Shown: one piece after another, positions 5,457 through 30,887 of the stretch
How positions within the stretch are numbered: position 1 is the first letter of the stretch
Layout of the letters: every line of letters begins with the position of its first letter
Source of the DNA: Gemmata obscuriglobus
GTDB lineage: Bacteria; Planctomycetota; Planctomycetia; Gemmatales; Gemmataceae
Assembly (NCBI RefSeq): GCF_008065095.1
Contig: NZ_CP042911.1
Span: 6,600,001 to 6,632,000, forward strand
Reading direction: 5' to 3'
Length of the DNA: 32,000 nucleotides
Notes under the pieces: model-generated
Told to the model about the DNA's origin: nothing
What the model saw: the letters and a program-made list of their open reading frames with translations, nothing else
Database searches by the model: none
Position numbers and translations under genes: made by a program

Positions 5457-6422
5457 GTGAGCGTGCTGGTCGCTGTAACGGCTGTGTTAATGGGGCTCGC
5501 GCCGGGCGACCGTCCGCACGTGCTGGTCGTGGTCGGGGCGGCGGGAACGCCGGAGTACGGAGCGGCGTTCCAGAAGTGGGCCGACCGGTGGGGGGCCGCC
5601 GCGCAGAAGGGCGGCTCCGAGTTCATGTGCATCGGCCGGGAACCGGAGGCGAAAGAGTCGGACCGGGACAAGCTTCAGGCGCTCCTGGCCCGGCTCCCGC
5701 GCGCCGGCGCGGCCCCGCTCTGGGTTGTCCTCATCGGCCACGGCACCGACGACGGCCGCGAGGCGCGGTTCAACCTGCGCGGGCCGGACGTCACCGCCCG
5801 GGAACTCGCCGACTGGCTCGGCCCGGTGAAGCGGCCGGTCGCGGTGGTGAACTGCACATCGGCCAGCGGGTCGTTCGTCACCCACCTGTCCGGGCCGGAC
5901 CGGGTCGTCGTCACCGCCACCCGCAGCGGCAGCGAGTCGAACTACGCCCGGTTCGGCGAGCACATCGCGAACGCCATCGGGGACCCGACCGCGGACCTCG
6001 ACAAGGACGGCCAGGTGTCGCTCCTGGAGGCGTTCCTGACCGCCTCCGACCGGGTGCGCGAGTTCTACCGGAGCGAAGGCCGGCTCGCCACCGAGCACGC
6101 CCTGCTCGACGACAACGGGGACAAGCTCGGCTCGGCGGCCGACTGGTTCCAGGGCGTCCGGGCCGTGAAGCGGGCCAAGGACGGCGCGCCCGTTGACGGC
6201 ACCCGCGCCCACCAGTGGCACCTGATCCCGAGCGTGCGCGAGCGGGCGCTCCCGGCGGAGGTCCGCAAGCGCCGCGACGAGTTGGAACTCGCCCTCGCCG
6301 GACTCCGCGACCAGAAAGGTCGTATCGGCGAGGACGAATATTACGCCCGCGTCGAAAAGCTCATGGTCGAACTCGCCCGTCTGTACGCCACGGCGTCCCC
6401 CGTCCCGGTGCCGAAGCCCTGA
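5457..6422 (+). CDS. Secreted hypothetical protein with a legumain/caspase-like (clan CD, C13-like) His-Gly...Cys dyad
   Basis: The start is GTG, preceded by GAAGGAG (5444-5450). The N-terminus is hydrophobic and signal-like (MSVLVAVTAVLMGLA). WVVLIGHGTDDG is followed about 38 aa later by VAVVNCTSASGSF. That spacing and the strand context resemble the legumain HG...EACESGS pattern. Confidence 0.5.
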   Translation: MSVLVAVTAVLMGLAPGDRPHVLVVVGAAGTPEYGAAFQKWADRWGAAAQKGGSEFMCIGREPEAKESDRDKLQALLARLPRAGAAPLWVVLIGHGTDDGREARFNLRGPDVTARELADWLGPVKRPVAVVNCTSASGSFVTHLSGPDRVVVTATRSGSESNYARFGEHIANAIGDPTADLDKDGQVSLLEAFLTASDRVREFYRSEGRLATEHALLDDNGDKLGSAADWFQGVRAVKRAKDGAPVDGTRAHQWHLIPSVRERALPAEVRKRRDELELALAGLRDQKGRIGEDEYYARVEKLMVELARLYATASPVPVPKP

Positions 6423-6480
6423 ACGCGACGGCGCGAGCCGGAAACTCAAGTCGTGATCTCTGGAGTGCCGGGCGGTGGGC

Positions 6481-6488
6481 TATAAAAT
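6481..6488 (+). promoter_or_regulatory. Candidate -10-like AT box (TATAAAAT) upstream of the triad
   Basis: This is the only AT-rich octamer in the 106-bp gap between the Bat-like cluster and the vWA gene. I found no convincing -35 element. Confidence 0.2.
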
Positions 6489-6528
6489 GAGGGCCTGATC
6501 GAACCGCGCGCCCACAACCGATGGCCCG

Positions 6529-7368
6529 ATGCCCTACTCCGCCCAGATCAGCCGAACGAACCCGGCCTGCCTGCTGTTCCTGATCGATCAATCCGGCTCG
6601 ATGGCCGACCCGTTCGTCGGGACCGGCGGGGCGTCCAAAGCGGCAACCGTAGCGGACGCCGTCAACCGGCTGCTCCAGAACGTGGTGCTCCGCTCTGCCA
6701 AGGCGGACGGGGTCCGCGACTACTTCCGGGTCGGCGTCATCGGGTACGGCACCGCCGTCAAGGCCGGGCTCGGCGGCACCGCGCCCTTCAACGTGCTCAC
6801 CCCGATCAGCAAGGTCGGCGATCAGCCGCTGCGGGTCGAGACGCGCACCAAGCTCATCCCCGACGGGGCCGGCGGGGTGCTGGAACAGAAGATCAAGTTC
6901 CCGGTCTGGTTCGACCCCGAGGCGGGGGGCAAAACCCCGATGTGCGAGGCGATGGCCGCGGCCGGGCTGGCGGTGAAGGGGTTCGTCGAGCAGTACCCAG
7001 ACGCGTACCCGCCGATCGTCCTGAACCTCACCGACGGGCTCCCCTCCGACGGCAACCCGCAGGAGCACGCCAAAGCGCTCCGCAAGCTGGGGACCAGCGA
7101 CGGCACCGCCCTGCTGTTCAACCTGCTGATTTCCGGTACGCCCGTGGCCCCGGAGTTCTTCCCGGCCGGGGAAGAGCACCTCACCGACAAGTGCTCCAAG
7201 CTCCTGTTCCGGATGTCGAGCGTGCTCCCGCCGCAACTGTGGGAGGCGGCGCGGGCCGAGGGCCACGACCTGAAGCCGGGCGCGCGGGGGGTGGTGCTCA
7301 ACGCGGACCCGACCGCCATCGTCCGGTTCCTCGACATCGGCACCCGCGTCACGCCCTCCGGGAAGTGA
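6529..7368 (+). CDS. Cytoplasmic von Willebrand factor A (vWA) domain protein, TerY-like
   Basis: The MIDAS motif DxSxS is present in LLFLIDQSGSMAD. A downstream PMCEAM and NLTDGLPSDG (TDG motif) are also present. No signal peptide is visible. The stop lies 2 nt before the next ATG. Confidence 0.85.
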   Translation: MPYSAQISRTNPACLLFLIDQSGSMADPFVGTGGASKAATVADAVNRLLQNVVLRSAKADGVRDYFRVGVIGYGTAVKAGLGGTAPFNVLTPISKVGDQPLRVETRTKLIPDGAGGVLEQKIKFPVWFDPEAGGKTPMCEAMAAAGLAVKGFVEQYPDAYPPIVLNLTDGLPSDGNPQEHAKALRKLGTSDGTALLFNLLISGTPVAPEFFPAGEEHLTDKCSKLLFRMSSVLPPQLWEAARAEGHDLKPGARGVVLNADPTAIVRFLDIGTRVTPSGK

Positions 7369-7370
7369 AC

Positions 7371-8114
7371 ATGCCCGCCATTCGGCCCCCGGAGTGGGTC
7401 TGCGTAACCGCCCCCAAGCGCGGCAACCGCGAGGACGAGAACGAGGACGCCGCCCGCGGGACCGCGGACGGGCTCCGGTTCGTCGTCTCCGACGGCGCCA
7501 GCGAGGGCTGGGAGTCGCGCCCGTGGGCGGCGCGCCTGGCCGAGGCGTTCCTGGCCCGCCCGCCCGGCCCCACCGACTTCGCGGAGTGGCTGCGCGGGGT
7601 TCGCGCGAGCTGGGCCGCACCCGAGCCGGCCGGGCCGGTGCCGTGGTACGCGTCGGTGAAGCGGGAGCAGGGCTCGTTCGCCACGCTCGCGGGGCTGGAG
7701 CTGCGCCGGTCGCAGAACCCGGTCGGCTGGGCGTGGCGGGCGGTCGCGGTGGGCGACAGTTGCCTGTTCCACGTCCGCGGCGACGAGGTGCGGGCCGCGT
7801 TCCCGGTCGACACGCCGGCCGGCTTCGGGAGCCGGCCCCGGCTGGTGCCCAGCACCGGCCCCGCGTGCCCCGAGCCCGAGTGGCTCGCCGGCCGCGCCGA
7901 GCCCGGGGACCTGCTCCTCCTCGCCACCGACGCGGTGGCCGCGCGGCTCCTCGCCCCCGCCGCCCGCGACGTCGGCCTGGCGGCGGCCCGCGCGGCCCTC
8001 GCCGCCCGCGCGCCGGATGTCGTACTGAGCTGGTTCCGTGCGATCCAGGACGCACACAACGACGACGTGTCCCTGATCGCGGTCCGACTGCCCGAAGCCC
8101 CGGAGGTCGCGTGA
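7371..8114 (+). CDS. PP2C-family (PP2C_2/SpoIIE-like) Ser/Thr phosphatase
   Basis: Motifs seen are GNREDENEDA (the NED metal-site motif), FVVSDGASEG, AVGDSCLFHVRG and LLLLATDAV. The stop TGA at 8112-8114 overlaps the GTG start of the kinase at 8111. Confidence 0.8.
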   Translation: MPAIRPPEWVCVTAPKRGNREDENEDAARGTADGLRFVVSDGASEGWESRPWAARLAEAFLARPPGPTDFAEWLRGVRASWAAPEPAGPVPWYASVKREQGSFATLAGLELRRSQNPVGWAWRAVAVGDSCLFHVRGDEVRAAFPVDTPAGFGSRPRLVPSTGPACPEPEWLAGRAEPGDLLLLATDAVAARLLAPAARDVGLAAARAALAARAPDVVLSWFRAIQDAHNDDVSLIAVRLPEAPEVA

Positions 8115-11100
8115 GCTGGCCCCTGTCGCACGAGTTCAACGAGGCGATCCAGAACCCGAAGGTGGCGTTCGCCGACCCCGAGCTGCGGGACGGGGAGCCG
8201 GTGGTCGGGGCGGCCGGCCTGCCGCTGCCGCGGTCCGGCAACTTCGCGGACGTGTACCAGGTGCGCGGGGCCGGCGGGCGCGACTGGGCGGTGAAGTGCT
8301 TCACCCGGCCGGTCGCGGGGCTGGCCGAGCGGTACGCCCGGGTGAGCGAGGCGCTGGAGCGGGCGAACCTGCCGTTCAACGTCGGGTTCAAGTTCCTGGC
8401 CGAGGGCATCCGGGTGGGCGGGGCGTGGCGCCCGGTCGTGATGATGGAGTGGGTCGAGGGGCTGCTGCTCAACCAGGTGGCCCGCGAGGCGGCCGGGAAG
8501 CCGCAGACGCTCGGCGCGCTGGGCCAGATGTGGGCGAAGCTGTGCCGGCGGCTGCGCAAGGCCGGGATCGCGCACGCGGACCTGCAGCACGGCAACGTGC
8601 TCATGGTGCCCGGGAACCGGGCCGGGGCCTACGGGCTGAAGCTGATCGACTACGACGGCGTGTGGGTGCCGGCCCTGGCCAACGTCCCGAGCGGCGAGTC
8701 CGGGCACCCGTCGTTCCAGCACCCGGCCCGGGCCGCCACCCGCACCTACTCGCCGGACGTGGACCGGTTCCCGCACCTGGTGGTCGCCGCCGCGCTGCGC
8801 GGGCTGGCGGTCGGCGGCGCGGCGCTGTGGGAGCGGTACGACAACGGCGACAACCTGCTGTTCACCGAGGACGACTACAAAAACCCGGCCGAATCGAAGC
8901 TAATGCGGGAGCTGTGGGGGCTGCACGACCCCGCGGTTCAGGCGCTGGTCGGGCGGCTGGCGATCGCGTGCGGCCAGCCGATCCCGCAGACCCCGTGGCT
9001 GGACCGGATCGCCCCCGAGGGGGAGCCGGTGCCGCTCGACGAGCCCACCCGGCTGGAAGCAGCCGCGGCCCTCGGAATCGCCCTGTCGGTGCCGGTCGCG
9101 CTGCCGCCCGAACCCGGCGCGGAGCCCATACCCGAACTCGTCCCGCTACCCGTACCGGAGGAGCCACCTTTTACGGTCGTCGACGAAGAGTACGACTACG
9201 ACGACGAGGATGACGAGAACGATGACGAGCACGACCATGAGTATGACCCCGAGCCGCAGAAGAGAACCCGCTCGACCTTCGAGCGGCCGAGGACGCGCGG
9301 GAGTAAAGCGCATCCGAAGGCAAAGGCCGGCGGCGGAAAAGTGATTGTGTTCGCGGCGATCGGTGCTGCGGCGGTCGTGCTGGTCGGTGCCCTCGCCGCG
9401 GCGGTGGTACTCGGCGGGGGCCGGTTCAAGCCGGACGGGACCGCCCAGACCCCGCCCAAGGACGCGCCGCCGACAGCCGCGGAACAGGGGGCACCGAAAG
9501 CCCCCCACGCGGGGCCGCAAACGGACCCCGAGCCCGAAATCCCCTTCACCGTACCGCACAGCGTCCCGTACCCGCCCGCCGGCGGGCGATACGGGCTCAG
9601 GCTGGTGTGGACCACTGCGGAAGATCTCGGGGGCGGGCTGTACCCAGTTTGCACCCTGAATTCCAGGCTGGTCGCGTTTCCCGGGGTGATGGGCGGCGAC
9701 TCGCGCGGGGCGGTACTCGACGCCGCGACCGGGAAACGGGTCGCGCAGAGCCAGGCGCGCCCCGCGGCCGGTTCGTTCGATCGGCTCCAGCCGCTCAACG
9801 ACGAGCGGTTCGCGGTCACGGCCCAGCACTCGCTGGCGCCGATCCCGGTCGTCGACGCCCGCACCGGACAGACGACCGAACTCCCTTACATCCCCGGGCC
9901 GCGACGCGTGACCTTCGAGCAGGTCTCGCCGGGCGCTCAGTACGTCGCGCTGTGCGTGCCGCCCCTGGCGCCCGACGTCGGCTCGTTCAAGCTGATGCGC
10001 ACCAGCGACGAGCGGGTACTTTTGGACCTCCCGTGCCCGGCCGTCCGGGCGCACTTCGCCGCGGACGGAACCCGGGTGCTCCTGGTGGAGAGAACCGGCG
10101 CGTGCCGGTGGTTCAAGCTGCCGTCCGGCCGGCCCGACGGACAGTTCGACCTGCCGATCGCGACCGACAAGTGGCAAGGGGGCGGGCTGTCGGCCGTGTC
10201 CGCCGACGGGTCCGTACTGGTCTTCTCCGGGTCACTTCACGGGCACACCGGCGACGCCCACATTCTCGACGGCCGGACCGGGCGCGTCCGCGCGTCGATC
10301 GCCCAGCCCCACGTCACCACGCACCCGTCGTTGTCCGCCGACGGCGCGCTGCTGGTGGTGACCAGCTCGTCCCAGGGGAAAACGACCGTGTCGGTGCTGC
10401 GCACCGACACGGCGGCGGTGGTCGCCGAGCTGGAAGCCCGCCCGGGGGCCACGTACTGCCCCGCCATCCTGCCCGACGGGCGCGGCTTTGTTGTGAGGGT
10501 ACACGTGCCGGGCGAGCGGCGGTCGTACGCCCAGCGGTACGACTTCGCCCCGGCCGGCGCGCTGCCCCCGGAAGCGACCGCCGGGCGGGAGCGGCTCAAG
10601 GTCGATCTCAACTTCCAACCGCAGTTCGCCCGGTTCAGCGGGGACGGGCAGGCGCTAACGGCTCACGCGGACAAGAGCAAGTGGTTCGCGCTGATCGACG
10701 CGCGGGCCGGCAAGGTTCGAATCATCCCGACCACCGGCGACCTTCGCGCGTACAGCTTCGTTCCGCTGGCGCGCGGCCGGGTCGGCGTGTTCGACGAGGG
10801 CACCAACGTCGTCCGTGTCCTCAGCGCGGAAACCGGCGCCCAAACGGACACGATCAATCTGCCCCAGTTCCCCGCCGGGTACGCGTCGTCCTTCCGCACG
10901 ATCCGGCCCTCGCCGGGCGGGCGGTTCGTCGCGGTCGGTTGTTTGGGCGGGGTGCGTTTCAACCCGGAGACCAAGCGCACGGACGAGATCCCGGGGCCGG
11001 TGCAGGTGTTCGACACGCGGACCGGTAAAACCGTCGTCTCGACCGAGTGGTACGGGGACGTGATGCACACCGGGTTCGCGTTCAGCCCGGACTCGTCGCG

Positions 11101-12619
11101 CGTGCTGGTGATCGACCGGCGGCTCCGCGGGCGGTGGTACAAGCTGCCGTCGGGCGAGCCGGACAGCGAGTGGGTGTACGGCGGGGGGGCCGGGGCGCCG
11201 GCCGGAGCGGCCGTGTCCGTCGCCCGGCTGTCTCAAGACGGCCGGGCCGTGCTCTGCAACGGGTTCGCGGCCGGGCGGCCCGGCGCGTTCACCCTCGACG
11301 CGGCCACCGGCGCGCTGGGCACCGTGTTTGAAGGGGCTTACGGGATCGGCGAACTGTCCGCGGACGGCACGCGGGCGCGGCTGGCGGCGAACAAGCCGGG
11401 GCGGCACACCTCGGTCGTCGTGAACACGAGCACCGGGTCGGAAGTCGGCCGCGTCGAGATCGCCACCGGTCCCGACAGCGCGCCGAACGTCGAACTGGCG
11501 CCGGACGGCCGGGCGCTGCTCCATTTCGACGGCAGCAAGCGCGGCCCGCTGGTGGTGTACGACCTGGCCGGTGCGGCCGACGACCCGCCCGCACCGGCCG
11601 TCGGCGCGGGACCGAAGCCGCGCTGGACCGGCACCACACAGGTCACCGGCCAGGCGGTCCGACTGCACGCGGACGCGGAATCGGACCTGCTGCTCGTGGC
11701 CGGGTCCGTCGGCGGCCTGAATGCGTTCAAACTGCGCACCGGGGCCGCGGTCAAAATCGACACGGGCCGCGCGGTCGCCGAGTTCTACGACATGACCGGC
11801 GGACAGGTCGGCGTCCGGCCGCGTACCACGATGGGCGAGTTGTTGATCCTGGACGCGGCCACCGGGCGGGAAATCAAGAAGGTGCCGGTACCCGCACTGC
11901 CGCCCGAGAGCGGGTCGCCGAGGCCCACGCCGGCGCTGTCACCGACCGGTACGCACGTCGCCATCACCCACGCGAACCTGAACGCACCCGGCCCGATGCG
12001 GGTGATCGATTTGGCGACCGGCAAACCGGTGGTCCAACTCGACTGGGCCGGCGGGACGGCACACTTCACCGCGGACGGGCGCCGGGTTCTGTTGGCCGAA
12101 CGGACCGGACGGTGCCGGTGGTACAAGCTCCCGTCCGGCGCCGCGGACGGCGAATGGGCCGGCCCGCCCGACGCCGACAGCACCCGGTATCAGGTGACGT
12201 CCATATCCGCGGACGGCGCGCTGGTCGGGTTCACAGTTCGGAGCGGGTCGTCCGGCCCGAACCGCGGGCCGGTGGTGCTGGACGGGCGCACCGGCAAGCC
12301 CGTCCACCGGTTCGGCGCCGACTACCGGCTCACCTCACCGGTTCAGCTCTCGGCCGACGGCCGCCGCGCGGCCGTGGCCCGGAGGCGCGACAGCGTGGAC
12401 GTGATCGACCTCCGAACCGGCGCGGTACTGGTGCGCGCGCCGATACAAGCACAGACCAGCGCCGCGCCGTTCGCGCTGAGCCGGGACGGGGCGGTGCTGG
12501 TCACGGTGCCCGAAGCGAGGGCGGTCCACGTGTTCGAGGTGGACGCAAGCAAGCCGCCCGCGCCGGCGGCCAACGAGAACAACAGTTTGGGCAAAGCCGC
12601 TTCGCCCGGCCCGCCGTGA
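8111..12619 (+). CDS. Transmembrane protein kinase with a three-fold repeated beta-propeller-like ectodomain
   Basis: The GTG start forms a GTGA overlap with the phosphatase stop. Kinase motifs are SGNFADVYQV (P-loop-like), WAVKCF (VAIK Lys), HADLQHGN (catalytic loop) and LIDYDG (DFG equivalent). An acidic linker VDEEYDYDDEDDENDDEHDHEYDPE follows. There is a single TM helix, VIVFAAIGAAAVVLVGALAAAVVL (about 9341-9420). The remaining roughly 1050 aa carry repeated xDxxTGxxV / SxDGxxL blade-like units. Confidence 0.8.
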   Translation: MSWPLSHEFNEAIQNPKVAFADPELRDGEPVVGAAGLPLPRSGNFADVYQVRGAGGRDWAVKCFTRPVAGLAERYARVSEALERANLPFNVGFKFLAEGIRVGGAWRPVVMMEWVEGLLLNQVAREAAGKPQTLGALGQMWAKLCRRLRKAGIAHADLQHGNVLMVPGNRAGAYGLKLIDYDGVWVPALANVPSGESGHPSFQHPARAATRTYSPDVDRFPHLVVAAALRGLAVGGAALWERYDNGDNLLFTEDDYKNPAESKLMRELWGLHDPAVQALVGRLAIACGQPIPQTPWLDRIAPEGEPVPLDEPTRLEAAAALGIALSVPVALPPEPGAEPIPELVPLPVPEEPPFTVVDEEYDYDDEDDENDDEHDHEYDPEPQKRTRSTFERPRTRGSKAHPKAKAGGGKVIVFAAIGAAAVVLVGALAAAVVLGGGRFKPDGTAQTPPKDAPPTAAEQGAPKAPHAGPQTDPEPEIPFTVPHSVPYPPAGGRYGLRLVWTTAEDLGGGLYPVCTLNSRLVAFPGVMGGDSRGAVLDAATGKRVAQSQARPAAGSFDRLQPLNDERFAVTAQHSLAPIPVVDARTGQTTELPYIPGPRRVTFEQVSPGAQYVALCVPPLAPDVGSFKLMRTSDERVLLDLPCPAVRAHFAADGTRVLLVERTGACRWFKLPSGRPDGQFDLPIATDKWQGGGLSAVSADGSVLVFSGSLHGHTGDAHILDGRTGRVRASIAQPHVTTHPSLSADGALLVVTSSSQGKTTVSVLRTDTAAVVAELEARPGATYCPAILPDGRGFVVRVHVPGERRSYAQRYDFAPAGALPPEATAGRERLKVDLNFQPQFARFSGDGQALTAHADKSKWFALIDARAGKVRIIPTTGDLRAYSFVPLARGRVGVFDEGTNVVRVLSAETGAQTDTINLPQFPAGYASSFRTIRPSPGGRFVAVGCLGGVRFNPETKRTDEIPGPVQVFDTRTGKTVVSTEWYGDVMHTGFAFSPDSSRVLVIDRRLRGRWYKLPSGEPDSEWVYGGGAGAPAGAAVSVARLSQDGRAVLCNGFAAGRPGAFTLDAATGALGTVFEGAYGIGELSADGTRARLAANKPGRHTSVVVNTSTGSEVGRVEIATGPDSAPNVELAPDGRALLHFDGSKRGPLVVYDLAGAADDPPAPAVGAGPKPRWTGTTQVTGQAVRLHADAESDLLLVAGSVGGLNAFKLRTGAAVKIDTGRAVAEFYDMTGGQVGVRPRTTMGELLILDAATGREIKKVPVPALPPESGSPRPTPALSPTGTHVAITHANLNAPGPMRVIDLATGKPVVQLDWAGGTAHFTADGRRVLLAERTGRCRWYKLPSGAADGEWAGPPDADSTRYQVTSISADGALVGFTVRSGSSGPNRGPVVLDGRTGKPVHRFGADYRLTSPVQLSADGRRAAVARRRDSVDVIDLRTGAVLVRAPIQAQTSAAPFALSRDGAVLVTVPEARAVHVFEVDASKPPAPAANENNSLGKAASPGPP

Positions 12620-12721: not shown

Positions 12722-13495
12722 GTGCCGGCGGCCGATTCGCCCCGCCGACGGAGAAGCGACGTGTCCGAACCAAACGAGCAGGTCACCGGGTTGCGGCTGG
12801 ATCAGATCTCAACGCACGTCGCCACACTCGGCGACGCCGAGAAGTTCTTCGTCCGGTACGGCCGGGCCGTCGGCGGCTACCTCCGGGCCATCCTGCAAGA
12901 CCCGGGGGCGACCGACGAGGTGATGCAGGAGCTGGTGCTCGCGCTGCTGCGGCGCGGGGGCGTCGCAAAGTGGCCGGGGAAGGGTCGGTTCCGGGACTAC
13001 CTGAAGGCGGCGGCCCGGAACGCGGCGATCACCCACCTCCGCAGAACCGGCCGCCAGCCCGCGGCGGCGGAGCTGGGCGAGGTCGCCGACCCGCACAGCG
13101 CCGGCAGCGCGGCGGACCGCGCGCTGCTGAGCGAGTGGCAGAGCTGCCTGTTGGACCGGGTTTGGCGGGCGCTGGAGGGGCACGAGCGACGCACCCCCGG
13201 GAACATCTGCTACACCGCCCTCAAGGTGTTCACCGAGTTCCCGCACGAGCCGTCGCCGCGCCTGGCCGCGATCGCGACCCAGCGCACCGGGCACGCGGTT
13301 GGCGCGGAGGCGTTCCGGAAACAGGTGAGCCGCGCGCGGTGTCTGATGGCCGAGTTGATCCTCACCGAGGCCGCCCGCGGGGTGATCCCGCCGACCGCGG
13401 ACGGGGTCGAAGCCGAACTCCACGAACTCGGGCTCTGGTCCTACGTCGAGGACCACCTCCCGGACGACTGGCGCACCCGCTTCTTCAGCGCCTGA
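12722..13495 (+). CDS. ECF-like sigma-70 family RNA polymerase sigma factor with no adjacent anti-sigma gene
   Basis: The region-2-like segment reads FFVRYGRAVGGYLRAILQDPGATDEVMQELVLALLRR ... RFRDYLKAAARNAAITHLRR. The region-4-like HTH reads AIATQRTGHAVGAEAFRKQVSRARCLMAELI. The start is uncertain: GTG at 12722, or GTG at 12761, which is preceded by GGAG at 12749. Confidence 0.6.
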   Translation: MPAADSPRRRRSDVSEPNEQVTGLRLDQISTHVATLGDAEKFFVRYGRAVGGYLRAILQDPGATDEVMQELVLALLRRGGVAKWPGKGRFRDYLKAAARNAAITHLRRTGRQPAAAELGEVADPHSAGSAADRALLSEWQSCLLDRVWRALEGHERRTPGNICYTALKVFTEFPHEPSPRLAAIATQRTGHAVGAEAFRKQVSRARCLMAELILTEAARGVIPPTADGVEAELHELGLWSYVEDHLPDDWRTRFFSA

Positions 13496-13628: not shown

Positions 13629-13877
13629 TCTTGAAGGGAGGACAACCTACCCCCCGGCCCCCTCCCTGAAGGGAGGGGGTGGCGCCTGGAGTGCTGGTCC
13701 CGGTGCGGCCCACACACGCGAAGCGAAGCCCCATCTCCAGCCCCTTTCATAGGGAGGGGAGGAAAACACGGGCGAACTCGAAGCGTCGCGCGCTCCTTTA
13801 GCGCCGGGACCAGCGCTCCAGGCGCCCCCCTCCCTTCAGGGAGGGGGCCGGGGGGTAGGTTGCCTTCCCTTCAAGGA
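13629..13877. repeat. Long imperfect palindromic repeat element (MITE/REP-BIME-like). Two inverted arms of about 78 nt flank a 94-nt spacer.
   Basis: Arm A (13629-13706) reads cttgaagggaggacaacctaccccccggccccctccctgaagggagggggtggcgcctggagtgctggtcccggtgc. It is nearly the exact reverse complement of arm B (13801-13877). Each arm also contains its own hairpin, CCCCCTCCC-TGAA-GGGAGGGGG. Confidence 0.85.
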
Positions 13878-14416: not shown

Positions 14417-14998
14417 ATGCACACCACGTCCGTGACACTGCTGGCCCGTCTCCGCCAGACCGGAGACGGAGACGCGTGGGCGCGGTTCGTCCGGACGTAC
14501 TCGCCGCTCCTGTACGGGTGGGCCAGGCGGATGGCGCTCGCGCACGACGACGCGGTCGACTTGGTGCAGGACGTGTTCGCCGTTTTGGTCCAGCAAATCC
14601 CCCGGTTCGACTACGACGGGCAGCAGCGGTTCCGCGGCTGGCTGTGGACGATCACCCGCCGGCGGTGGGCGGACCGCAAACGGAAGGCGAGCCTTCCGAT
14701 CGACCCCGGGCGCGACCCGTCCGAACTGCCGGCGGCCAGCGCTGACATCGGACTGGAAGAGGCCGAGTTTCGCGCGCACCTGATCCGGCACGTGGTTCCG
14801 ACCCTTCGCGGGAACTTCCATGAGACCACCTGGCGGTCGTTCTGGAAGCACGTTGTTGACGGCCGGCCCGTGACCGAGGTGGCGGCCGAGGAGGGGGTCA
14901 CCGTGGCGGCGGTCTACAAAGCCAAGCTGCGGGTGACCGCCCACCTCCAAAAGGAACTGGCCGACCTGATGACCGATTCACCCGGCGACCCGTTATGA
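14417..14998 (+). CDS. ECF-type RNA polymerase sigma factor (planctomycete type, kinase-associated)
   Basis: The N-terminus reads TSVTLLARLRQTGDGDAWARFVRTYSPLLYGWARR. Region 2 reads DLVQDVFAVLVQQ...FRGWLWTITRRRWADRKR. Region 4 reads EVAAEEGVTVAAVYKAKLRVTAHLQKEL. The stop overlaps the next gene's start (ATGA at 14995-14998). Confidence 0.85.
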   Translation: MHTTSVTLLARLRQTGDGDAWARFVRTYSPLLYGWARRMALAHDDAVDLVQDVFAVLVQQIPRFDYDGQQRFRGWLWTITRRRWADRKRKASLPIDPGRDPSELPAASADIGLEEAEFRAHLIRHVVPTLRGNFHETTWRSFWKHVVDGRPVTEVAAEEGVTVAAVYKAKLRVTAHLQKELADLMTDSPGDPL

Positions 14999-17046
14999 CC
15001 CCGACCGACCCGTGCCCGCCGGCCGCCGAATTCGAGGCCTTCCTGCGCGGCCGGCTCGACGACGCCCGGTCCGACGCCGTGGAGCGGCACGTCGAGCGGT
15101 GCGCCCGCTGTCAGCGGACGATTGACGGGTTGAGCGTGGACACACGGCTGACGGACGCCCTTCGGGGCGACGACGATCTGGCCGGTGCCCTTTCGGACCC
15201 CGTCACCGACCCGCGGGTCGGGGCGATGGTGGCCCGGATCGAGGAGATGGCCAGCCAGTTCACCCCGGCCGGGTTCGACCTTCACCCTTCGGCCACCGGG
15301 TCCGGGAGCGAGTGCCCGCCGTTCGATCCGCCGCACGCCCCAGAGGACCTGGGGCGGATGAGCGGGTACCGCGTGGTGCGGTTGCTCGGCGGCGGGGGAA
15401 TGGGACTGGTGTATCTGGCCGAGGACGAGGCGCTGCGCCGGCCGGTGGCGGTGAAGATCCTCCGCCCGCGGCTCGCCCGCCACTCCCGCGCCCGGGACGG
15501 GTTCCTCCGGGAAGCCCGGGCGGTGGCGGCGCTCAAGCACGACAACGTGGTGACCGTTTTTCAGGTCGGCGAGGCGGTCGGCCCGGACGGCACGCCGGTG
15601 CCGTTCCTGGCCATGGAACTGCTGGAGGGTGAGAGCCTGGCGGACTGGTTGCGGCGCGGCGAGCGGGTGCCGGCCGGATGGGCCGCCCGGCTCGGTCGCC
15701 AAGCCGCCGAGGGGTTAGCTGCGGCCCACGCCCGCGGGGTCGTTCACCGCGACATCAAACCGGGCAACCTGTGGCTCGAGGTGCCGGCCGGGTGGGCCGA
15801 CCTGCCGCCGGACGGCCGGGCGCCGCTGCCGGCCGTCGCCCGCGTCAAAGTGCTCGACTTCGGACTGGCCCAGCCGGCCGGGATCGGGGACCGCGCGTCG
15901 GTAGCGTTCGGCACGCCGGCGTACATGCCACCGGAGCAAGCGGCCGGGCAGGAAGTCGATCACCGGGCCGACCTGTTCAGCCTCGGAGTCGTGCTGTACG
16001 AACTCGTGGCCGGCCGATTGCCGTTCCCGCGCACCGAATCAGACGAACGCAGCTACGCAACACCCGAACCGGTCGAGCGCCTCGCCCCGGGCGTGCCGCC
16101 GGGTCTCGCCTACCTGATCGGCAGGCTCCTGTCCCCCGCGCCCGCCGACCGCCCGGCCACCGCCCGACAGGTCGCCGCCGAACTCCTCGCGCTGACCACT
16201 GAGGGCGGGGGCACGGCCGGGCGTGACCTCCCCGCACGCCGTCGGTTGCGGCGCGTCGCATGGGCCTTCGGGCTGGCCGCCTTCGTGTTGCTCTTCGCGG
16301 GCATATGTCTGGCGGGTAACAAGTTCCGTCAGCCCGGCGGGCAGGTGGAGTCGGGACCGCTCACCCGCCCCGGCCCGCCGGACGACGAGTGGGTCGCCGC
16401 CGTCACCGCGCTGCCGGTCGACCGCCAGCCGGGCGCGGTGATCGACAAGCTCTGTGAACTCAACCCGGGGTACGACGGTCAGGTGGCCAAGCTCGGGTTC
16501 GAGAACGGAATGGTGACAGAGTTCGCAATCAAAACGGACGACGTGTCGGACATCCGCCCGCTCCGGGCGCTGACCGGGCTCAAATCCCTCTCAGTAACCG
16601 GTAGCGCCCCCGGGCTGGGGCGGTTGGCGGATCTGTCCGCGATTCGCGGCCTCCCGCTCACCGTCTTGAACATTTGGCAGAACCCCGCACTGACCGACCT
16701 GTCAGCGACCCGCGGGATGCAACTCACCGTGATGCAAGCCGGTGACACCGCCGTCGCGGACCTGTCGCCGCTGGAAGGGATGCCGATCAGCATTCTGGCG
16801 GTGAATAACTGCCGGGTGCGAGACGTGTCGCCGGTGCGGACACTTGCCAAGGTCCGCCTGTTCCGCTGCGACGGCTGTCCGATTGACACACTCGAACCGC
16901 TCGCCGGATCGAAGGTGCGGGAACTGATCTGCGATTTCCGACCGACCCGCGGTGACGCGGCCGTACTGGCGCGGATGCCGCAACTCGAATCGATCAACCG
17001 TCTTACCACCGCCGACTTCCTTCGCCGCCACGCCGCGGTTCGGTGA
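14995..17046 (+). CDS. Fusion protein: ZAS-type anti-sigma motif, Hanks Ser/Thr protein kinase, TM helix and extracytoplasmic leucine-rich repeats
   Basis: The signature C-x24-H-x3-C-x2-C is present (CPPAAEF...[11 protein letters not shown]). Kinase motifs are [34 protein letters not shown] and [10 protein letters not shown]. The TM helix is [21 protein letters not shown]. The C-terminus has LRR-like units (LKSLSVTG..., [16 protein letters not shown]...). Confidence 0.85.
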
Positions 17047-18592: not shown

Positions 18593-19477
18593 CTACTTGA
18601 ACACAAGGCATTTCGGCAATGCGTTGCGAATAGTTTTAACGCCCGCGTCCGTCACCTGCGTGGACGTCAGATGCAACACTTTCAACTTCTTCAGCGAGGC
18701 GAGGCTTTTTACGCCCGCATCTGTCACCTGTGTTTTCTCGAGATGAAGCGTCGTGAGCTTATCAAGCGCGGCGAGCTCTTTTAAACCGCCGTCCGTGATT
18801 TTGCATTCCGACAATTGAAGAATCCTCAGCGACTTGAACGCTGCAATTTCCTTGAGACCAGCCTCGGAGATATCTGTCCCACTCAAATAGAGGCTGTGAA
18901 AGCCGTCAATGGCCGCGACCTGCTTCAAACCGACGCCAGTGATCTTGGCCCCATCCAAGCGGAGAGTCGTCAGCCCCTTTAACTTGGCCACGTTCTTGAA
19001 TGCGGCGTCAGTGATTTTTGTGCCCATCAACCATAGTTCCGAGAGGCGCTTCAAAGGCACTAGTTCTCCGATGCCCGCGTCCGTCACAGCGGTCTCGTCG
19101 AGGGCGAGCTTTTCAAGGTGTGTGAGCTTCGCAACATCCTTCAGTCCAGCGTCTGTCACTTTAGTGCGGCTTAGGAGAAGCTCTGTAAGGCCCTTTGATG
19201 AGGTTAGTTCTTTGAGGCCCGCATCGGACACCTGCGTGTCGTACAGGGAAAGGACGGCGAGATGCTTAAAAGCGGCCAGTTCCTTCAGGTCGGCGTCGGC
19301 AATCTTCGTGCCCTCCAACCAGAGTTCTATTACCGATCCGTCCGAATTCCGCGTGATTTTACCTCCAAGTTTTTCAACGAACGCGACCGCCTTGCTCTCA
19401 GCACCATCAGCCCCTACCGGTGCAGACGAACAGAGAACCGACAGCACGACCAACAGCTTCTGCGTGACACACGGCAT
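18593..19477 (-). CDS. Secreted leucine-rich repeat (LRR) protein
   Basis: An N-terminal signal-like segment (LLVVLSVLCSSAPVGA) is followed by about ten 24-aa repeats of the form L..L.L..T.VTDAGLKEL..LK. GC content and codon usage are markedly lower than in the neighbouring genes. Confidence 0.85.
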   Translation of the reverse strand: MPCVTQKLLVVLSVLCSSAPVGADGAESKAVAFVEKLGGKITRNSDGSVIELWLEGTKIADADLKELAAFKHLAVLSLYDTQVSDAGLKELTSSKGLTELLLSRTKVTDAGLKDVAKLTHLEKLALDETAVTDAGIGELVPLKRLSELWLMGTKITDAAFKNVAKLKGLTTLRLDGAKITGVGLKQVAAIDGFHSLYLSGTDISEAGLKEIAAFKSLRILQLSECKITDGGLKELAALDKLTTLHLEKTQVTDAGVKSLASLKKLKVLHLTSTQVTDAGVKTIRNALPKCLVFK

Positions 19478-19689
19478 AATCGCTCCTCAAGGGATACATC
19501 CGGCGTCATTCTATCCCAAGCTGGACTTACGAGACAATTTGCGCCCAGCCAATTTTCCCCCGCTCGCTGGGCTTGACACTGGCAGGGCCGTTGTGGGAAC
19601 CTCTACCCCCGTCAACACTGACACGACTGGCGCAGGTTACCGGGACGACGGCCCCTCACGGATCGAGGGGCGCTGCGAAGGATCACGGA

Positions 19690-20769
19690 ATGATCATCTG
19701 CCGGACCCCTTATCGCATCTCGTTCTTCGGCGGCGGCACCGACTACCCCGCGTGGTACCGGCAACACGGCGGCACCGTCCTCGCCACCGGCATCGACAAA
19801 TACTGTTACCTCACCTGCCGGTACCTGCCGCCGTTCTTTGAGCACCGCATCCGGGTCGTGTACCGGCAGATCGAGACGTGTCTGACGGCCGACGAGGTCG
19901 AGCACCCGGTGGTCCGGGCGGCGCTCCAGCACCTGAACATCGACCGCGGCGTAGAGATCCATCACGACGGCGACCTGCCGGCGCGCAGCGGGATGGGGTC
20001 GAGTTCCGCGTTCACGGTGGGCCTGCTCCACGCCCTGCACGCGCTCAAGGGCGAGATGCCCACGAAGCACCAGCTCGCGAAAGAGGCGATCCACCTGGAA
20101 CAGAACGTTCTGGGCGAAACGGTCGGCTCGCAGGACCAGACGGTCGCGGCGCACGGAGGCTTCAAGCACGTCAAGTTCCACAGCGACGGCGAAATCGAGG
20201 TCTCACCGCTGGTGCTCCCGGCGGGGCGCATCGCCGAGTTAAAGTCGCACCTGATGCTCGTGTACACAGGCATCGTGCGGACCGCGGCGGACGTGGCGCA
20301 GAGCTACGTTCCCGGACTCGAAACCCGGCGCCGGCAGCTCCGCATCATGAAAGAAATGGTGGACGAGGCGATCGAGATCCTGACCGGCGGGGTGAACCTC
20401 GTCGCGTTCGGCGAACTGCTCCACGAAGCGTGGCTCGCGAAGCGGAGCCTGAGCGCCGCGGTGTCGAACCCCGAGGTGGACGCACTCTACCACACCGCCC
20501 TTGAAGCCGGCGCGATCGGCGGGAAGCTCACCGGCGCCGGCGGCGGCGGGTTTCTGCTCCTGTTCGTCCCGCCCGAGCGGCGAAACGACGTTCTGGAAGC
20601 GCTGGACGGCTGCATTCACGTTCCGTTCGAATTCGAGAACGGCGGCAGCCAGATCATCTTCTACGAGCCGGGAACCGACTACGAGGCGGTCGACCGCGCC
20701 CGCGGGTCACGCCGCCGCACGTTCAAGGAACTGCCCCGCCCGGCCCTCCACCCGACGGAGGCCGCATGA
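19690..20769 (+). CDS. GHMP-family sugar kinase, COG2605/HddA-like (D-glycero-D-manno-heptose-7-phosphate kinase family)
   Basis: The N-terminus reads MIICRTPYRISFFGGGTDYPAWY. GHMP motif II is PARSGMGSSSAF and motif III is GGKLTGAGGGGFLLLF. The start is the internal ATG at 19690, not the TTG at 19573. Confidence 0.75.
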   Translation: MIICRTPYRISFFGGGTDYPAWYRQHGGTVLATGIDKYCYLTCRYLPPFFEHRIRVVYRQIETCLTADEVEHPVVRAALQHLNIDRGVEIHHDGDLPARSGMGSSSAFTVGLLHALHALKGEMPTKHQLAKEAIHLEQNVLGETVGSQDQTVAAHGGFKHVKFHSDGEIEVSPLVLPAGRIAELKSHLMLVYTGIVRTAADVAQSYVPGLETRRRQLRIMKEMVDEAIEILTGGVNLVAFGELLHEAWLAKRSLSAAVSNPEVDALYHTALEAGAIGGKLTGAGGGGFLLLFVPPERRNDVLEALDGCIHVPFEFENGGSQIIFYEPGTDYEAVDRARGSRRRTFKELPRPALHPTEAA

Positions 20770-21728
20770 CCCCGCACACGCGCGTTTTCGTGGCCGGCGG
20801 GAACACACTGTACGGTCACGCGCTCACCACCCTACTGCGCGCCGAAGGGTTTGAGAGCCTTGTTGGTGTGGGCACAGCCGAACCGGACCTGACCGACGCA
20901 GCGGCGACCGACGCGTTCTTCGCGCAGGAACGCCCCGAATGCGTCTTCCTGTGCGCCGGGCGGTCCGGCGGGATCGGGCTGAACCGCGCCGCGCCGGTCG
21001 AGCTGATGCGCGACAACTTGCTCACGACGCTCAACGTGCTGGCGTCCGCGCACCGGCACGGAACGGCGAAGCTGCTGTACCTTGCGAGTTCGTGCGCGTA
21101 CCCCAAGCACGCCGCTCAGCCGCTGCAAGTCGAGTCGCTCGGCACCGGCCCGATGGAACCGACCAGCGAGGCGTACTCGACCGCGAAGTTCGCCGGGTGG
21201 AAGCTGTGCGACGCGTACCGGCGCGAGTACGGGTGCCGATTCGTCACGGGCTTCCCGGCGAACGCGTTCGGCCCGCACGACGACTTCACGCCCGAGGGCG
21301 GGCACGTTATCCCCGCCCTGCTCCGCCGCGCTCACGACGCCAAGTCGCGTGGCGATGCGGAACTCGTGGTGTGGGGCACCGGCGCCCCGCGCCGGGAGTT
21401 CGTGTACTCGCGCGACCTGGCCCGCGCGTGCCTCTTCGTGGCCCGCAACTACGAAGGCGAGGCCCCGATCAACCTCGGCGGCGGCACCGACCTGAGCATT
21501 GCCGACGTGGCCCACGCGGTCGCGGAGGTTGTGGGCTTCAAGGGCCGGTTGGTTTTCGACACGACCAAGCCGGACGGCGCCCCGCTGAAGGCGCTCGATT
21601 CGGCACCGCTGCTGGACATGGGCTGGCGGCCGGAGTCGGACTTCCGGGCCGCACTGAACGAGACGTACCACTGGTTCCTGCACCACCGCGCCACGGAGGG
21701 CCGCACGCATGCACGCCGGGCTGTATAG
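20766..21728 (+). CDS. GDP-L-fucose synthase (Fcl) / GDP-L-colitose synthase (ColC)-like SDR epimerase-reductase
   Basis: It is about 320 aa with an N-terminal Rossmann segment, VFVAGGNTLYGHAL. It has LYLASSCAYP, the catalytic YSTAKF (YxxxK), and NAFGPHDDF...HVIPALL, which is typical of Fcl. It overlaps the preceding gene by 4 nt (ATGA). Confidence 0.7.
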   Translation: MTPHTRVFVAGGNTLYGHALTTLLRAEGFESLVGVGTAEPDLTDAAATDAFFAQERPECVFLCAGRSGGIGLNRAAPVELMRDNLLTTLNVLASAHRHGTAKLLYLASSCAYPKHAAQPLQVESLGTGPMEPTSEAYSTAKFAGWKLCDAYRREYGCRFVTGFPANAFGPHDDFTPEGGHVIPALLRRAHDAKSRGDAELVVWGTGAPRREFVYSRDLARACLFVARNYEGEAPINLGGGTDLSIADVAHAVAEVVGFKGRLVFDTTKPDGAPLKALDSAPLLDMGWRPESDFRAALNETYHWFLHHRATEGRTHARRAV

Positions 21729-22674
21729 GTCGCTGTATCGCATTCGCCGCGTCGAGGAAGAGATCGCGCGGGTGTACGCGACCGACAAGATCAAGAGTCC
21801 GGTCCACCTGTCGATCGGGCAGGAGGCGGTGTCGGTCGGCGTGTGCGACGTGCTGCGCCCCGACGATGTCGTGTTCGGCACCTACCGCGGGCACGCCATG
21901 TACCTCGCCAAGGGCGGGGACATGAGCGCGATGGTGGCCGAGTTGTACGGGAAGGTGACGGGCTGCACCCGCGGCAAGGGCGGGTCGATGCACCTCATCG
22001 ACACCGAGTGCGGGGTGATGGGCACGTCCGCGGTGGTGGGCACGACGATCGCCAACGCCGCCGGCTACGCTTACGCGCTGAAAGTGCGGCGCTCCGACGC
22101 GGTGGTGGTGTGCTTCTTCGGAGATGGCGCCACGGAAGAGGGTGTGTTCGCCGAAACGCTCAACTTCGCGGTGCTGAAGAAGCTGCCCGTGCTGTTCGTG
22201 TGCGAGAACAACGGGTACGCGATCCACACCGCGCAGTCGAAGCGTCAGGGGCTGCCGGACATCTGCGCCCGCGCCCGCGCCTACGGGATGCCGGCCGAGC
22301 GGCTCGACGGCAACGACGTCCTTACCCTCCGCGATAAGGCCGCGGACCTGGTCGCACAACTGCGGGCCGGCGCCGGGCCGCAGTTCCTCGAAGCCACCAC
22401 GTACCGCTGGCGCGAGCACGTGGGGCCGGGGCAAGACTTCAAACTCGGTTACCGGTCGCAGGCCGAGTGCGAGCGCTGGTACGAGAGCGATCCCGTGCGC
22501 GTGCTCGCGGCCCAATTGCCCGCGGATGTGCGAACGAAGATCGAGGCCGCGGCGGAGCGCGAGGTGGCCGCGGCGTTCGAGTTCGCCGAGAGCAGCCCGT
22601 TCCCGCACCCGTCCGAACTCATGACCGACATCTTCACGGAGGACAGCAATGAGTTTGCCGCTTGTGGGCGCTAA
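21709..22674 (+). CDS. Thiamine-diphosphate-dependent dehydrogenase E1 component, alpha-subunit-like
   Basis: Motifs are SPVHLSIGQEAVSVG, GKGGSMH and VVCFFGDGATEEGVFAETLNFA...PVLFVCENNGYAI, the last being the GDG-x(n)-NN ThDP motif. It overlaps fcl-like by 20 nt. Confidence 0.8.
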   Translation: MHAGLYRSLYRIRRVEEEIARVYATDKIKSPVHLSIGQEAVSVGVCDVLRPDDVVFGTYRGHAMYLAKGGDMSAMVAELYGKVTGCTRGKGGSMHLIDTECGVMGTSAVVGTTIANAAGYAYALKVRRSDAVVVCFFGDGATEEGVFAETLNFAVLKKLPVLFVCENNGYAIHTAQSKRQGLPDICARARAYGMPAERLDGNDVLTLRDKAADLVAQLRAGAGPQFLEATTYRWREHVGPGQDFKLGYRSQAECERWYESDPVRVLAAQLPADVRTKIEAAAEREVAAAFEFAESSPFPHPSELMTDIFTEDSNEFAACGR

Positions 22675-23752: not shown

Positions 23753-23763
23753 TCTTGCCGGAG

Positions 23764-23784
23764 CGCGGGCCTCCGGCCCGCTTT
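23764..23784 (+). terminator. Intrinsic-terminator-like hairpin after the E1 beta gene
   Basis: GCGGGCC-TCC-GGCCCGC forms a 7-bp GC stem with a 3-nt loop. TTTT follows immediately, 12 nt after the stop codon. Confidence 0.6.
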
Positions 23785-23894
23785 TGCCCGGGCGCCGGTA
23801 ACACGGACAACGTCATCGCCGCGCACAGCGGAAGCGGGCCAAAAGCCCGCGCTCCGGCGCGACCACACACGGCAGTACACCACGGAAGACGCAC

Positions 23895-25094: not shown

Positions 25095-25098
25095 CCCC

Positions 25099-25152
25099 CG
25101 CCTGCCCGGCGGGGCAGGCGTTCACCGCGCCGGGCGTGAGTGCTACGCCCGG
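25099..25152 (+). other. Two tandem GC-rich hairpins in the intercistronic spacer
   Basis: The first hairpin is CGCCTGCCC-GGCG-GGGCAGGCG (25099-25120). The second is CCGGGCGT-GAGTGCT-ACGCCCGG (25130-25152). Neither is followed by a strong T-tract. Confidence 0.5.
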
Positions 25153-25178
25153 CCGTGCCCCATCGACGGACACTCAAC

Positions 25179-26768: not shown

Positions 26769-26783
26769 CGGTTCCGCCCCCGC

Positions 26784-26912
26784 AGCACAGGGCTCCCGCC
26801 CTGTGCTAAGCCCGCCGGCCCCTCCGGGGCGGAATACAGGCACAACGGCGTGTCGGTTGTTTTTGCACCCCGGAGGGGTCGCCGGATGTAGCACAGGGCG
26901 GGAGCCCTGTGT
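26784..26912. repeat. Palindromic intergenic element of about 129 nt between convergent genes (REP/MITE-like; candidate bidirectional terminator)
   Basis: Hairpin AGCACAGGGC-TCCC-GCCCTGTGCT (26784-26807) has a reverse-complement copy, GCACAGGGC-GGGA-GCCCTGTGT (26891-26912). The nested inverted pair CCCCTCCGGGG / CCCCGGAGGGG lies between them. A central T-run, GTTGTTTTTGC, is present. Confidence 0.8.
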
Positions 26913-26917
26913 CCTCC

Positions 26918-29445: not shown

Positions 29446-29453
29446 TCCACACC

Positions 29454-30854: not shown

Positions 30855-30887
30855 GTTGAGGGTCCGTACTCTTGGGGAGGTGAGAGC

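Follow-up and report, generated by a model that had tools for sequence, protein, structure and literature searches.

TerY-P systems, which bring together a TerY-type vWA protein, a PP2C phosphatase and a protein kinase, have been described in several settings. Their kinase carries a zinc ribbon where they lie by McrBC/CoCoNuT or Ter clusters, and an OB fold where they form a stand-alone anti-phage system (PMC11090510, PMC7699616, PMC4978471). In actinobacteria, GAP1-N2 systems also combine a kinase, a PP2C and a stand-alone vWA protein, and this kinase was reported to be 'fused to TM helices', that is, to transmembrane (TM) helices (Kaur et al. 2020, PMC7159879). Here we analyzed a 32-kb stretch of Gemmata obscuriglobus DNA (NZ_CP042911.1; hereafter the window, to which all coordinates of this genome refer), which carries a triad of vWA, phosphatase and kinase genes at 6529-12619, all on the plus strand. 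A preliminary description of the sequence had noticed this triad and compared it with TerY-P; our results confirmed the observation and supported the interpretation. We further propose that the triad is a membrane-receptor variant of TerY-P, in which periplasmic propellers would sense, the kinase would signal, the vWA protein would act as output and the PP2C would reset the switch. On balance, we consider this reading probable, with considerable room for doubt.

The stand-alone TerY-P system has the same gene order as the G. obscuriglobus triad, with a TerY vWA protein of ~277 aa, a PP2C and a kinase, as listed by Gao et al. 2020 and modeled in PADLOC, and the corresponding MIDAS (metal ion-dependent adhesion site) and catalytic residues are intact here. 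Its anti-phage listing, mentioned in the preliminary description, was confirmed through the citing papers PMC11090510 and PMC7699616. In contrast to that system, whose kinase has an OB-fold half, the G. obscuriglobus kinase has a TM helix and three predicted periplasmic propellers instead, and no defense-island context was found around it in the window. The TerY-P systems of Ter and McrBC-CoCoNuT clusters (Anantharaman et al. 2012; Bell et al. 2024, PMC11090510) comprise the same three protein families, and the same function has been proposed for them, a metal-dependent switch controlled by phosphorylation. However, their kinase has a zinc ribbon and lies by McrBC, helicase, nuclease or ter genes, none of which was found in the window. 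The closest published description is that of Kaur et al. (PMC7159879). Its theme, in which an active kinase bears either a zinc ribbon/beta-rich domain or TM helices, is found here as a kinase with a TM helix linked to a PP2C and a stand-alone vWA protein, and also in our actinobacterial relatives (loci L023 and L025), which have kinases of about 406 aa with a hydrophobic tail. GAP1-N2 systems differ in having a GAP1-N2 protein and a DO-GTPase nearby; neither was present among the window open reading frames (ORFs) scanned, and the G. obscuriglobus vWA protein has no GAP1 domains. Moreover, PMC7159879 covers membrane anchoring, not a long modular ectodomain or a planctomycete radiation. Our literature searches found no planctomycete or Gemmata version of TerY-P, and both the receptor architecture and the family size are new in the searchable literature.

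Two other signaling systems offer useful comparisons. PknB and StkP are cytoplasmic kinases with one TM helix and an extracytoplasmic PASTA sensor, and a cognate PP2C stands alongside each (PknB/PstP, StkP/PhpP). The same plan is predicted for the triad kinase; it differs, however, in lying below Pfam Pkinase detection and in the TerY-P clade, in carrying propellers and not PASTA domains, and in having an obligatory vWA partner. Sulfolobus ArnA and ArnB (FHA and vWA proteins, with Ser/Thr kinases and a phosphatase) provide a precedent for a cytoplasmic vWA protein set by phosphorylation. The ArnAB structure 8s05_B was among the Foldseek matches of our vWA model as a distant match (TM-score about 0.46, 14% identity), and ArnA/ArnB differs from the triad in gene context and kinase family.

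The layout of three plus-strand genes with a 2-nt gap, a GTGA overlap and a 106-bp gap upstream, as first described, was borne out by both the ORF table and the sequence. Between the end of the upstream ORF at 6422 and the ATG of the vWA gene at 6529 lie 106 nt (6423-6528, plus strand), which presumably contain the promoter and 5' untranslated region; a scan of 6423-6528 found no sigma-70 consensus promoter, planctomycete promoter types being outside the coverage of that scan. Two nucleotides, 'ac', separate the vWA stop codon (TGA, 7366-7368) from the ATG of the phosphatase gene at 7371. The phosphatase stop codon (TGA, 8112-8114) is overlapped by the GTG start of the kinase gene at 8111, forming the 4-nt GTGA, and the kinase gene extends from 8111 to 12619, encoding 1502 aa.

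We then surveyed gene linkage in 27 related kinase loci from several phyla. Co-occurrence of the three genes in relatives had been set beforehand as a test, and it was found across several phyla: a full triad, adjacent, co-directional and in the gene order of G. obscuriglobus, was present in 17 of the 27 loci, while 3/27 had vWA and kinase genes without a phosphatase gene and 7/27 an orphan kinase. The 4-nt overlap of phosphatase stop and kinase start recurred in ten of the 17 full triads, one of them from Armatimonadota. All three G. obscuriglobus genes were under purifying selection relative to G. algarum, with ratios of nonsynonymous to synonymous substitution (dN/dS) of 0.15-0.32. Because the overlap recurs in 10/17 loci and selection acts on all three genes, the layout goes beyond chance. 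The three genes form one co-translated cassette. Two loci (L007 and L015) have the kinase gene directly 3' of the vWA gene without a phosphatase gene. Locus L002 has a 313-aa ORF at 5984-6925, with a hydrophobic signal-like stretch and no family match, in the PP2C slot between vWA and kinase genes. A conserved fourth gene was ruled out by all-against-all clustering of the flanking ORFs, which revealed no universal partner; the one recurrent flanking gene was a RicinB-like ORF of ~300 aa, located downstream in four close loci.

The family assignment of the triad was obtained at the profile level. Single-sequence searches of all three proteins against the PDB gave nothing useful, profile searches were needed, and the PDB searches found no close solved homolog for any of the three. 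The kinase, PP2C and vWA folds, whose detection by profile search had also been set as a test, were recovered by PADLOC models (E=2.1e-94 for TerY, 5.3e-26 for PP2C and 1.9e-60 for STK_OB), by PDB profiles and, for the vWA protein, by an AlphaFold2 (AF2) model. Three consecutive genes thus matched the three TerY-P models, in agreement with the match proposed for this gene triplet at the outset, and all motifs quoted there were found: DQSGS in the vWA protein, NED, SDGASEG, GDS and ATDA in the phosphatase, and AVK, HADLQHGN and DYDG in the kinase. By its three core proteins and gene order we place the triad in the TerY-P family; it is a distinct variant because an OB fold or zinc ribbon at the C-terminus of the kinase was looked for and not found.

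The first gene (6529-7368, plus strand) encodes a TerY-type vWA protein of 279 aa, predicted to be cytoplasmic and identical to GobsT_56260 (WP_010044389.1). The PADLOC TerY model matched it over profile positions 1-273 of 277, while Pfam VWA_2 gave 1e-4, below threshold. DQSGS occupies aa 20-24, and the MIDAS residues D20, S22, S24, T136 and D169 are invariant in 11 relatives; the protein thus has a complete MIDAS metal site. Its AF2 model (pLDDT, or predicted local distance difference test, 87.1) matched vWF-A3, integrin I domains, the CMG2 vWA domain and ArnB in Foldseek. No hydrophobic segment was found in it by Kyte-Doolittle analysis, and its gene had a dN/dS of 0.19 relative to G. algarum. 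G. obscuriglobus has a second TerY paralog, AWM42221.1, with 73% identity.

The second gene (7371-8114, plus strand) encodes a 247-aa PP2C/PPM-type Ser/Thr phosphatase, identical to GobsT_56270 (WP_010044386.1). The PADLOC PP2C model matched at profile positions 8-149 of 242, that is, the N-terminal part of the model only, and Pfam SpoIIE gave 4e-3, below threshold. A phosphatase profile matched tPphA, PppA and SpoIIE in the PDB, with a best E-value of 8e-5. The invariant residues E23, E25, D26, D41, G42, D129, D187, D231 and D232 (motifs ED, DGA, GDS, TDA and DD) make up a complete set of PPM catalytic residues. For this gene, dN/dS relative to G. algarum was 0.18.

The 1502-aa kinase is identical to a G. 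obscuriglobus protein labeled 'translocation protein TolB' by NCBI. Its first 330 residues (8111-9100, plus strand) form a TerY-P-type protein kinase domain according to PADLOC STK_OB and PDB profile matches, and this domain is predicted to be cytoplasmic. The STK_OB model matched over positions 1-291 of 562 only, and its OB-fold half (292-562) was unmatched. Pfam Pkinase gave no match on this kinase, the only Pfam match being APH at 6e-3, below threshold; nevertheless, a profile of 13 kinase domains matched the Hanks kinases CaMK1G, PAK1, DAPK and PknA in the PDB at about 1e-11. The domain has thus diverged from Pfam Pkinase so far that its likeness to Hanks kinases is visible at the profile level only. 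H155, D157, N162 and D180-Y-D-G183 are invariant in relatives, K62 is conserved in Gemmataceae, and dN/dS of the domain relative to G. algarum was 0.145. The kinase domain is assigned to the TerY-P clade and, with its full catalytic set, predicted to be active.

Behind the kinase domain come, in order, a conserved short segment, an acidic run, a basic cluster, a hydrophobic segment, a Pro-rich stalk and three tandem repeats. This agrees with the architecture first proposed, a kinase domain followed by an acidic linker, one TM helix and repeats, with ~1068 aa of beta-rich repeats after the helix where ~1050 had been estimated. The putative cytoplasmic juxtamembrane linker (9182-9340, plus strand) comprises the acidic run at aa 358-381, where the densest stretch of 12 residues includes 10 D/E, and then the basic cluster at aa 384-410. 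An acidic patch (at least 5 D/E in 12 aa) was present in this linker in 45% of 220 relatives, compared with 4% in an ectodomain background control. One may speculate that the acidic linker serves as a ligand of the MIDAS site.

The hydrophobic segment at aa 411-434 (9341-9412, plus strand) is predicted by hydropathy and charge to be a single TM helix with N-in/C-out orientation. The Kyte-Doolittle maximum over 19 residues reached 2.75 here, and this was the sole window above 1.6 in any triad protein; hydropathy analysis found no signal peptide at the kinase N-terminus. Ten K/R residues lie in the 40 residues before the helix, all in the last 27, as against 4 in the 40 residues after it, and this excess on the kinase side points to an N-in/C-out topology by the positive-inside rule. 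The relatives showed the same pattern. A single hydrophobic segment directly after the kinase domain, at residues 300-520, was found in 220 of 236 relatives, with on average 6.2 K+R before and 3.4 after it and a kinase-side excess in 83%. The charge distribution here and the types of ectodomain in relatives both agree with the earlier prediction that the repeats lie outside the cytoplasm. The triad kinase is thus predicted to be a single-pass membrane protein with its kinase domain in the cytoplasm and its propellers in the periplasm.

The C-terminal region consists of three tandem repeats of ~335 aa with 28-32% mutual identity (E = 1e-20 to 1e-29), each with a W[FY]KLPSG motif. Unit 1 (aa 485-824; 9563-10582, plus strand) is related to units 2 and 3 at 28-30% identity (E=1e-20 to 1e-26), carries WFKLPSG at aa 667, matches the hidden Markov model (HMM) of the unit at E=1.5e-73, and is a predicted beta-propeller by homology to unit 3. 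Unit 2 (aa 825-1156; 10583-11578, plus strand) carries WYKLPSG at aa 1009 and matches the HMM at E=6e-79. Unit 3 (aa 1157-1490; 11579-12619, plus strand, including a short C-terminal tail and the stop codon) was modeled by AF2 from an alignment of 24 homologous units. The model, a 7-bladed beta-propeller, was all-beta with ~27 strands (pLDDT 87.2, predicted template modeling score 0.86), and Foldseek matched it to 7-bladed propellers, including G-beta, WD40 proteins and the periplasmic YncE of E. coli, with TM-scores of 0.65-0.70 at about 1e-13. Pfam gave only sub-threshold matches on the repeats, Beta-prop_THOC3 in unit 3 and PD40 in unit 1. Relative to G. algarum, dN/dS of propellers 1, 2 and 3 was 0.31, 0.34 and 0.55, respectively.

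This kinase turned out to belong to a very large family. Over 600 relatives came out of a full-length search, and almost all of them were from Gemmataceae and other Planctomycetota. Ortholog-like kinases, such as a 1512-aa protein of Frigoriglobus tundricola, are ~40% identical across the whole length, and many more relatives share the kinase domain only, at 55-80% identity, with other C-termini attached. These C-termini include 1-4 propeller units, PA14, FGE-sulfatase, DUF1080 and ricin domains and WD40 arrays, and the plan of kinase, TM helix and ectodomain was present in 220/236 close relatives. With the kinase domain only, an exhaustive search reached 7168 clusters at a cut-off of E<=1e-3 and 3551 clusters at E<=1e-30; identity was at least 53% and length 389-2025 aa, which is receptor-sized, among the best 150 clusters. 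In the public records seen, these kinases are labeled 'TolB', 'WD40 repeat protein' or 'hypothetical'. By these searches, Gemmataceae encode hundreds of such receptor-like kinases. The architecture had been called unusual at first, and it is so when compared with canonical OB-fold or zinc-ribbon kinases, but it is the norm within Gemmataceae.

In distant triads, the kinase has other C-terminal modules, and this module is therefore the variable part of the family: the kinase is soluble and 299 aa long in Armatimonadota, 524 aa long with an Lcl_C domain in Bacteroidota, and about 406 aa long with a C-terminal hydrophobic tail in Actinobacteria (L023, L025). Membrane anchoring is older than the planctomycete ectodomains. 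Some genomes contain both a full triad and orphan receptor kinases, as seen in F. tundricola (P0005 versus P0027) and in four loci of the metagenome-assembled genome (MAG) palsa_1347. Two contigs labeled 'uncultured Alcaligenaceae' (L017 and L018; G+C 0.65-0.70) carry full triads with TM kinases of ~1880 aa, which are 55-58% identical to the Gemmata kinase domain; they may be mis-binned planctomycete contigs or reflect horizontal transfer.

Fusions in relatives gave indications of how the triad may be wired. In P0048, a metagenomic protein of 939 aa, a TerY vWA domain is joined to two TerY-P-type kinase domains in tandem, and in P0056 (908 aa) an FGE-sulfatase domain is joined to two such kinase domains; neither protein has a TM helix. 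In a Paludibacteraceae MAG (L024, 4636-6165), a full triad has a TerY vWA protein with DarT at its N-terminus, a toxin domain that ADP-ribosylates single-stranded DNA (Pfam 2.5e-33), and the kinase of this triad ends in an Lcl_C domain, not an OB fold. In F. tundricola (L029, 6774-8867, CP053452.2) and in L002 (4027-6093), a protein of ~690 aa has a vWA C-terminus preceded by N-terminal GAP1-N2 and GAP1-M domains above Pfam cut-offs, and these two loci are among the closest full-length relatives. The DarT and GAP1-N2 fusions link the family to conflict systems, and through the GAP1-N2/M-vWA proteins of the closest relatives, the planctomycete triads connect with the GAP1-N2 conflict systems described by Kaur et al. 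2020. Because the vWA protein acquires effector or adaptor domains in relatives, it is likely to be the output arm of the switch. The C-terminus of the kinase can be swapped: it may be an OB fold or a zinc ribbon, a TM tail alone, or a TM helix bearing a large ectodomain. This is good evidence for a sensor role of the C-terminal module.

Collectively, these results suggest the following mechanism. The C-terminal module would be the sensor, and the propellers would read a periplasmic or cell-surface ligand, possibly a protein or a glycan; where the propellers stand here, relatives have PA14, ricin, DUF1080 and FGE-type modules. Binding would probably cluster the single-pass receptors and turn on the cytoplasmic kinase, whose substrate may then be the TerY vWA protein encoded beside it, or else a partner caught by the MIDAS site of that protein, and the PP2C would reset this phospho-switch. 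The vWA protein would serve as output or adaptor arm; relatives fuse this protein to a DarT toxin or to GAP1 domains, and in one case to the kinase itself. The same vWA/PP2C pair may also take input from orphan receptor kinases that carry other ectodomains and are encoded in the same genomes.

The genes around the triad were examined as well. As first described, no ter genes lie nearby: scans of the large ORFs of the 32-kb window with Pfam and PADLOC found none, and likewise no McrBC or other DNA-processing genes and no GAP1 or GTPase gene. Upstream are large envelope-type ORFs, which agrees with the envelope cluster noted there at first, but the label 'Bat-like' is backed by weak DUF4175 and GATase1_like matches only. 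The ORF directly before the triad (5457-6422, plus strand, 321 aa) has no Pfam, NCBIfam or PADLOC match and is 96% conserved in G. algarum, with a dN/dS of 0.15; the possibility that it is a detached GAP1 domain was rejected, as BLASTP against the N-terminus of the F. tundricola GAP1-vWA protein showed no similarity.

Downstream, 141 nt after the kinase stop codon, lies a divergent sigma-70/ECF-like gene (ECF, extracytoplasmic function) with a GTG start (12761-13495, plus strand, 244 aa), a neighbor that is probably not part of the system. Pfam Sigma70_r2 matched its product above the family cut-off (9e-9); no region other than region 2 could be detected, and NCBIfam ECF matches were sub-threshold. 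No anti-sigma gene is adjacent to it. Among the related loci searched, which included F. tundricola, only those of G. obscuriglobus and G. algarum have a sigma-like gene downstream of the kinase, and the sigma factor was therefore ruled out as a conserved fourth gene. The preliminary description had mentioned a lone downstream ECF sigma gene: a sigma-like gene is indeed present, but it is not a family-wide partner, and it is not alone, since a second ECF sigma gene (14417-14998, plus strand) lies further on, with an ATGA overlap to the gene of a 683-aa protein that ends at 17046 and contains a zf-HC2 anti-sigma motif at its N-terminus, a Hanks Pkinase domain (1.4e-39) and leucine-rich repeats (LRRs) at its C-terminus. 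These two genes (14417-17046) are a sigma/anti-sigma-kinase pair outside the TerY-P kinase clade. Between the two sigma genes, at 13630-13875, we found a large imperfect palindrome, with outer arms of 50 nt (96% complementary), inner arms of 30 nt (90%), a spacing of 94 nt and the self-complementary core CCCTCCCTTCAGGGAGGGGG. It could be an element like a miniature inverted-repeat transposable element or a repetitive extragenic palindrome, or else a strong bidirectional terminator. Further downstream come a DUF1559 protein and then a sugar/polysaccharide biosynthesis cluster (19573-31826) with a GHMP kinase, an epimerase, E1/transketolase-like subunits, a DegT aminotransferase, a B12 radical-SAM enzyme and glycosyltransferases. 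The G+C content falls to 0.59-0.60 around 18-20 kb, with the dip at a minus-strand LRR gene (18593-19477), compared with 0.66-0.76 elsewhere in the window.

Several of our observations weigh against a receptor-type TerY-P switch working in defense. Its topology is predicted from hydropathy and charge rules only, and as unit 3 alone was modeled, the propeller fold of units 1 and 2 is inferred from homology. The vWA protein of G. obscuriglobus has no effector domain, and the average dN/dS of the propellers is raised (0.31-0.55), yet with no overall positive selection. A defense island was rejected, as PADLOC on ten neighboring ORFs gave generic kinase matches only, all on the unrelated Hanks kinase at 14995-17046, and a plasmid or phage origin was rejected as well, with no megablast match in the plasmid collection and no relative found on viral contigs. 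The neighbors are envelope, sigma-factor and sugar-biosynthesis genes, and the flanks are syntenic with G. algarum and with no other relative. This synteny and the lack of relatives on viral contigs mean that ordinary signaling fits as well as defense. The same machine might accordingly be a planctomycete envelope or nutrient sensor, responding to polysaccharides or to the state of the envelope, with no part in defense against phages or invaders. Such a housekeeping role would fit a neighborhood of envelope cluster, sigma factors and sugar/polysaccharide cluster with no defense gene in it, a location that is stable between G. obscuriglobus and G. algarum with all genes under purifying selection, and the absence of copies on viral contigs; in addition, the PA14, ricin lectin, DUF1080 and FGE-sulfatase domains of relatives are classic glycan-binding or -processing modules, and several paralogs per genome are typical of sensory families. 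However, the vWA protein and the kinase N-terminus match the models of a validated anti-phage system strongly and nearly full-length (the phosphatase only at profile positions 8-149 of 242), the vWA protein is fused to the DarT toxin or to GAP1-N2 conflict domains (PMC7159879) in related triads, and the number and type of ectodomains change fast between close relatives. We consider a pure housekeeping role possible but rather doubtful. Taken together, the relatives favor a conflict role, and the local context favors neither defense nor ordinary sensing; the most likely role of the membrane-receptor TerY-P variant is envelope surveillance in a conflict or defense setting, only slightly ahead of ordinary environmental sensing.

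Two further explanations concern the parts of the system. The real target of the kinase might be the product of the sigma-like gene 141 nt downstream, so that a sigma factor would be controlled through Ser/Thr phosphorylation, as has been proposed for ECF-kinase pairs, with the vWA protein and the PP2C as accessories. A Sigma70_r2 protein is indeed encoded 3' of the kinase on the same strand in both G. obscuriglobus and G. algarum, its gene has no anti-sigma gene beside it, and the ATGA-linked ECF sigma/anti-sigma-kinase pair 1 kb further on indicates that such a regulatory theme exists in this genome. We nevertheless regard this target as very unlikely, given that none of the other related loci searched, F. 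tundricola among them, has the sigma gene downstream of the kinase, while the vWA and PP2C genes are conserved across phyla, and that only region 2 is detectable, with ECF scores below family cut-offs. Alternatively, the hydrophobic segment might not span the membrane, or the topology might be inverted, so that the propellers would be an intracellular scaffold like the WD40 domains of cytoplasmic bacterial Ser/Thr kinases. Fusions of kinases with WD40 propellers are common among cytoplasmic bacterial proteins, the Foldseek matches were mostly cytoplasmic eukaryotic WD40 proteins, and the use of hydropathy and charge rules only leaves some room for this arrangement. Against it stand the Kyte-Doolittle value of 2.75, the same position of the segment in 220/236 relatives, the basic residues on the kinase side in 83% of them, the Pro-rich stalk after the helix, the PA14, ricin and FGE modules that take the same position in relatives, and the lack of a signal peptide at the kinase N-terminus; moreover, nothing follows the hydrophobic tail in the actinobacterial relatives, in keeping with a tail-anchored kinase. 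We therefore give cytoplasmic repeats hardly any credence, and retain the predicted periplasmic propellers.

In summary, the exchange of the kinase C-terminus and the fusions of the vWA protein suggest concrete, testable roles for all three TerY-P components. A more far-reaching idea is that the TerY-P receptor kinases of Gemmataceae, with their interchangeable ectodomains such as propellers, PA14, lectins and FGE, are pattern-recognition receptors that watch the periplasm or cell surface for phage particles or other invaders and converge on one vWA/PP2C switch. We hold this idea to be unlikely, though worth stating: if true, it would describe a bacterial immune system that senses attack outside the cytoplasm and is laid out like plant receptor-like kinases. 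If the radiation serves defense, it would be a rare case of bacterial immunity sensing outside the cytoplasm; if it serves ordinary sensing, it would represent a large receptor-kinase family that has so far gone unrecognized, in a phylum whose envelope biology is unusual.

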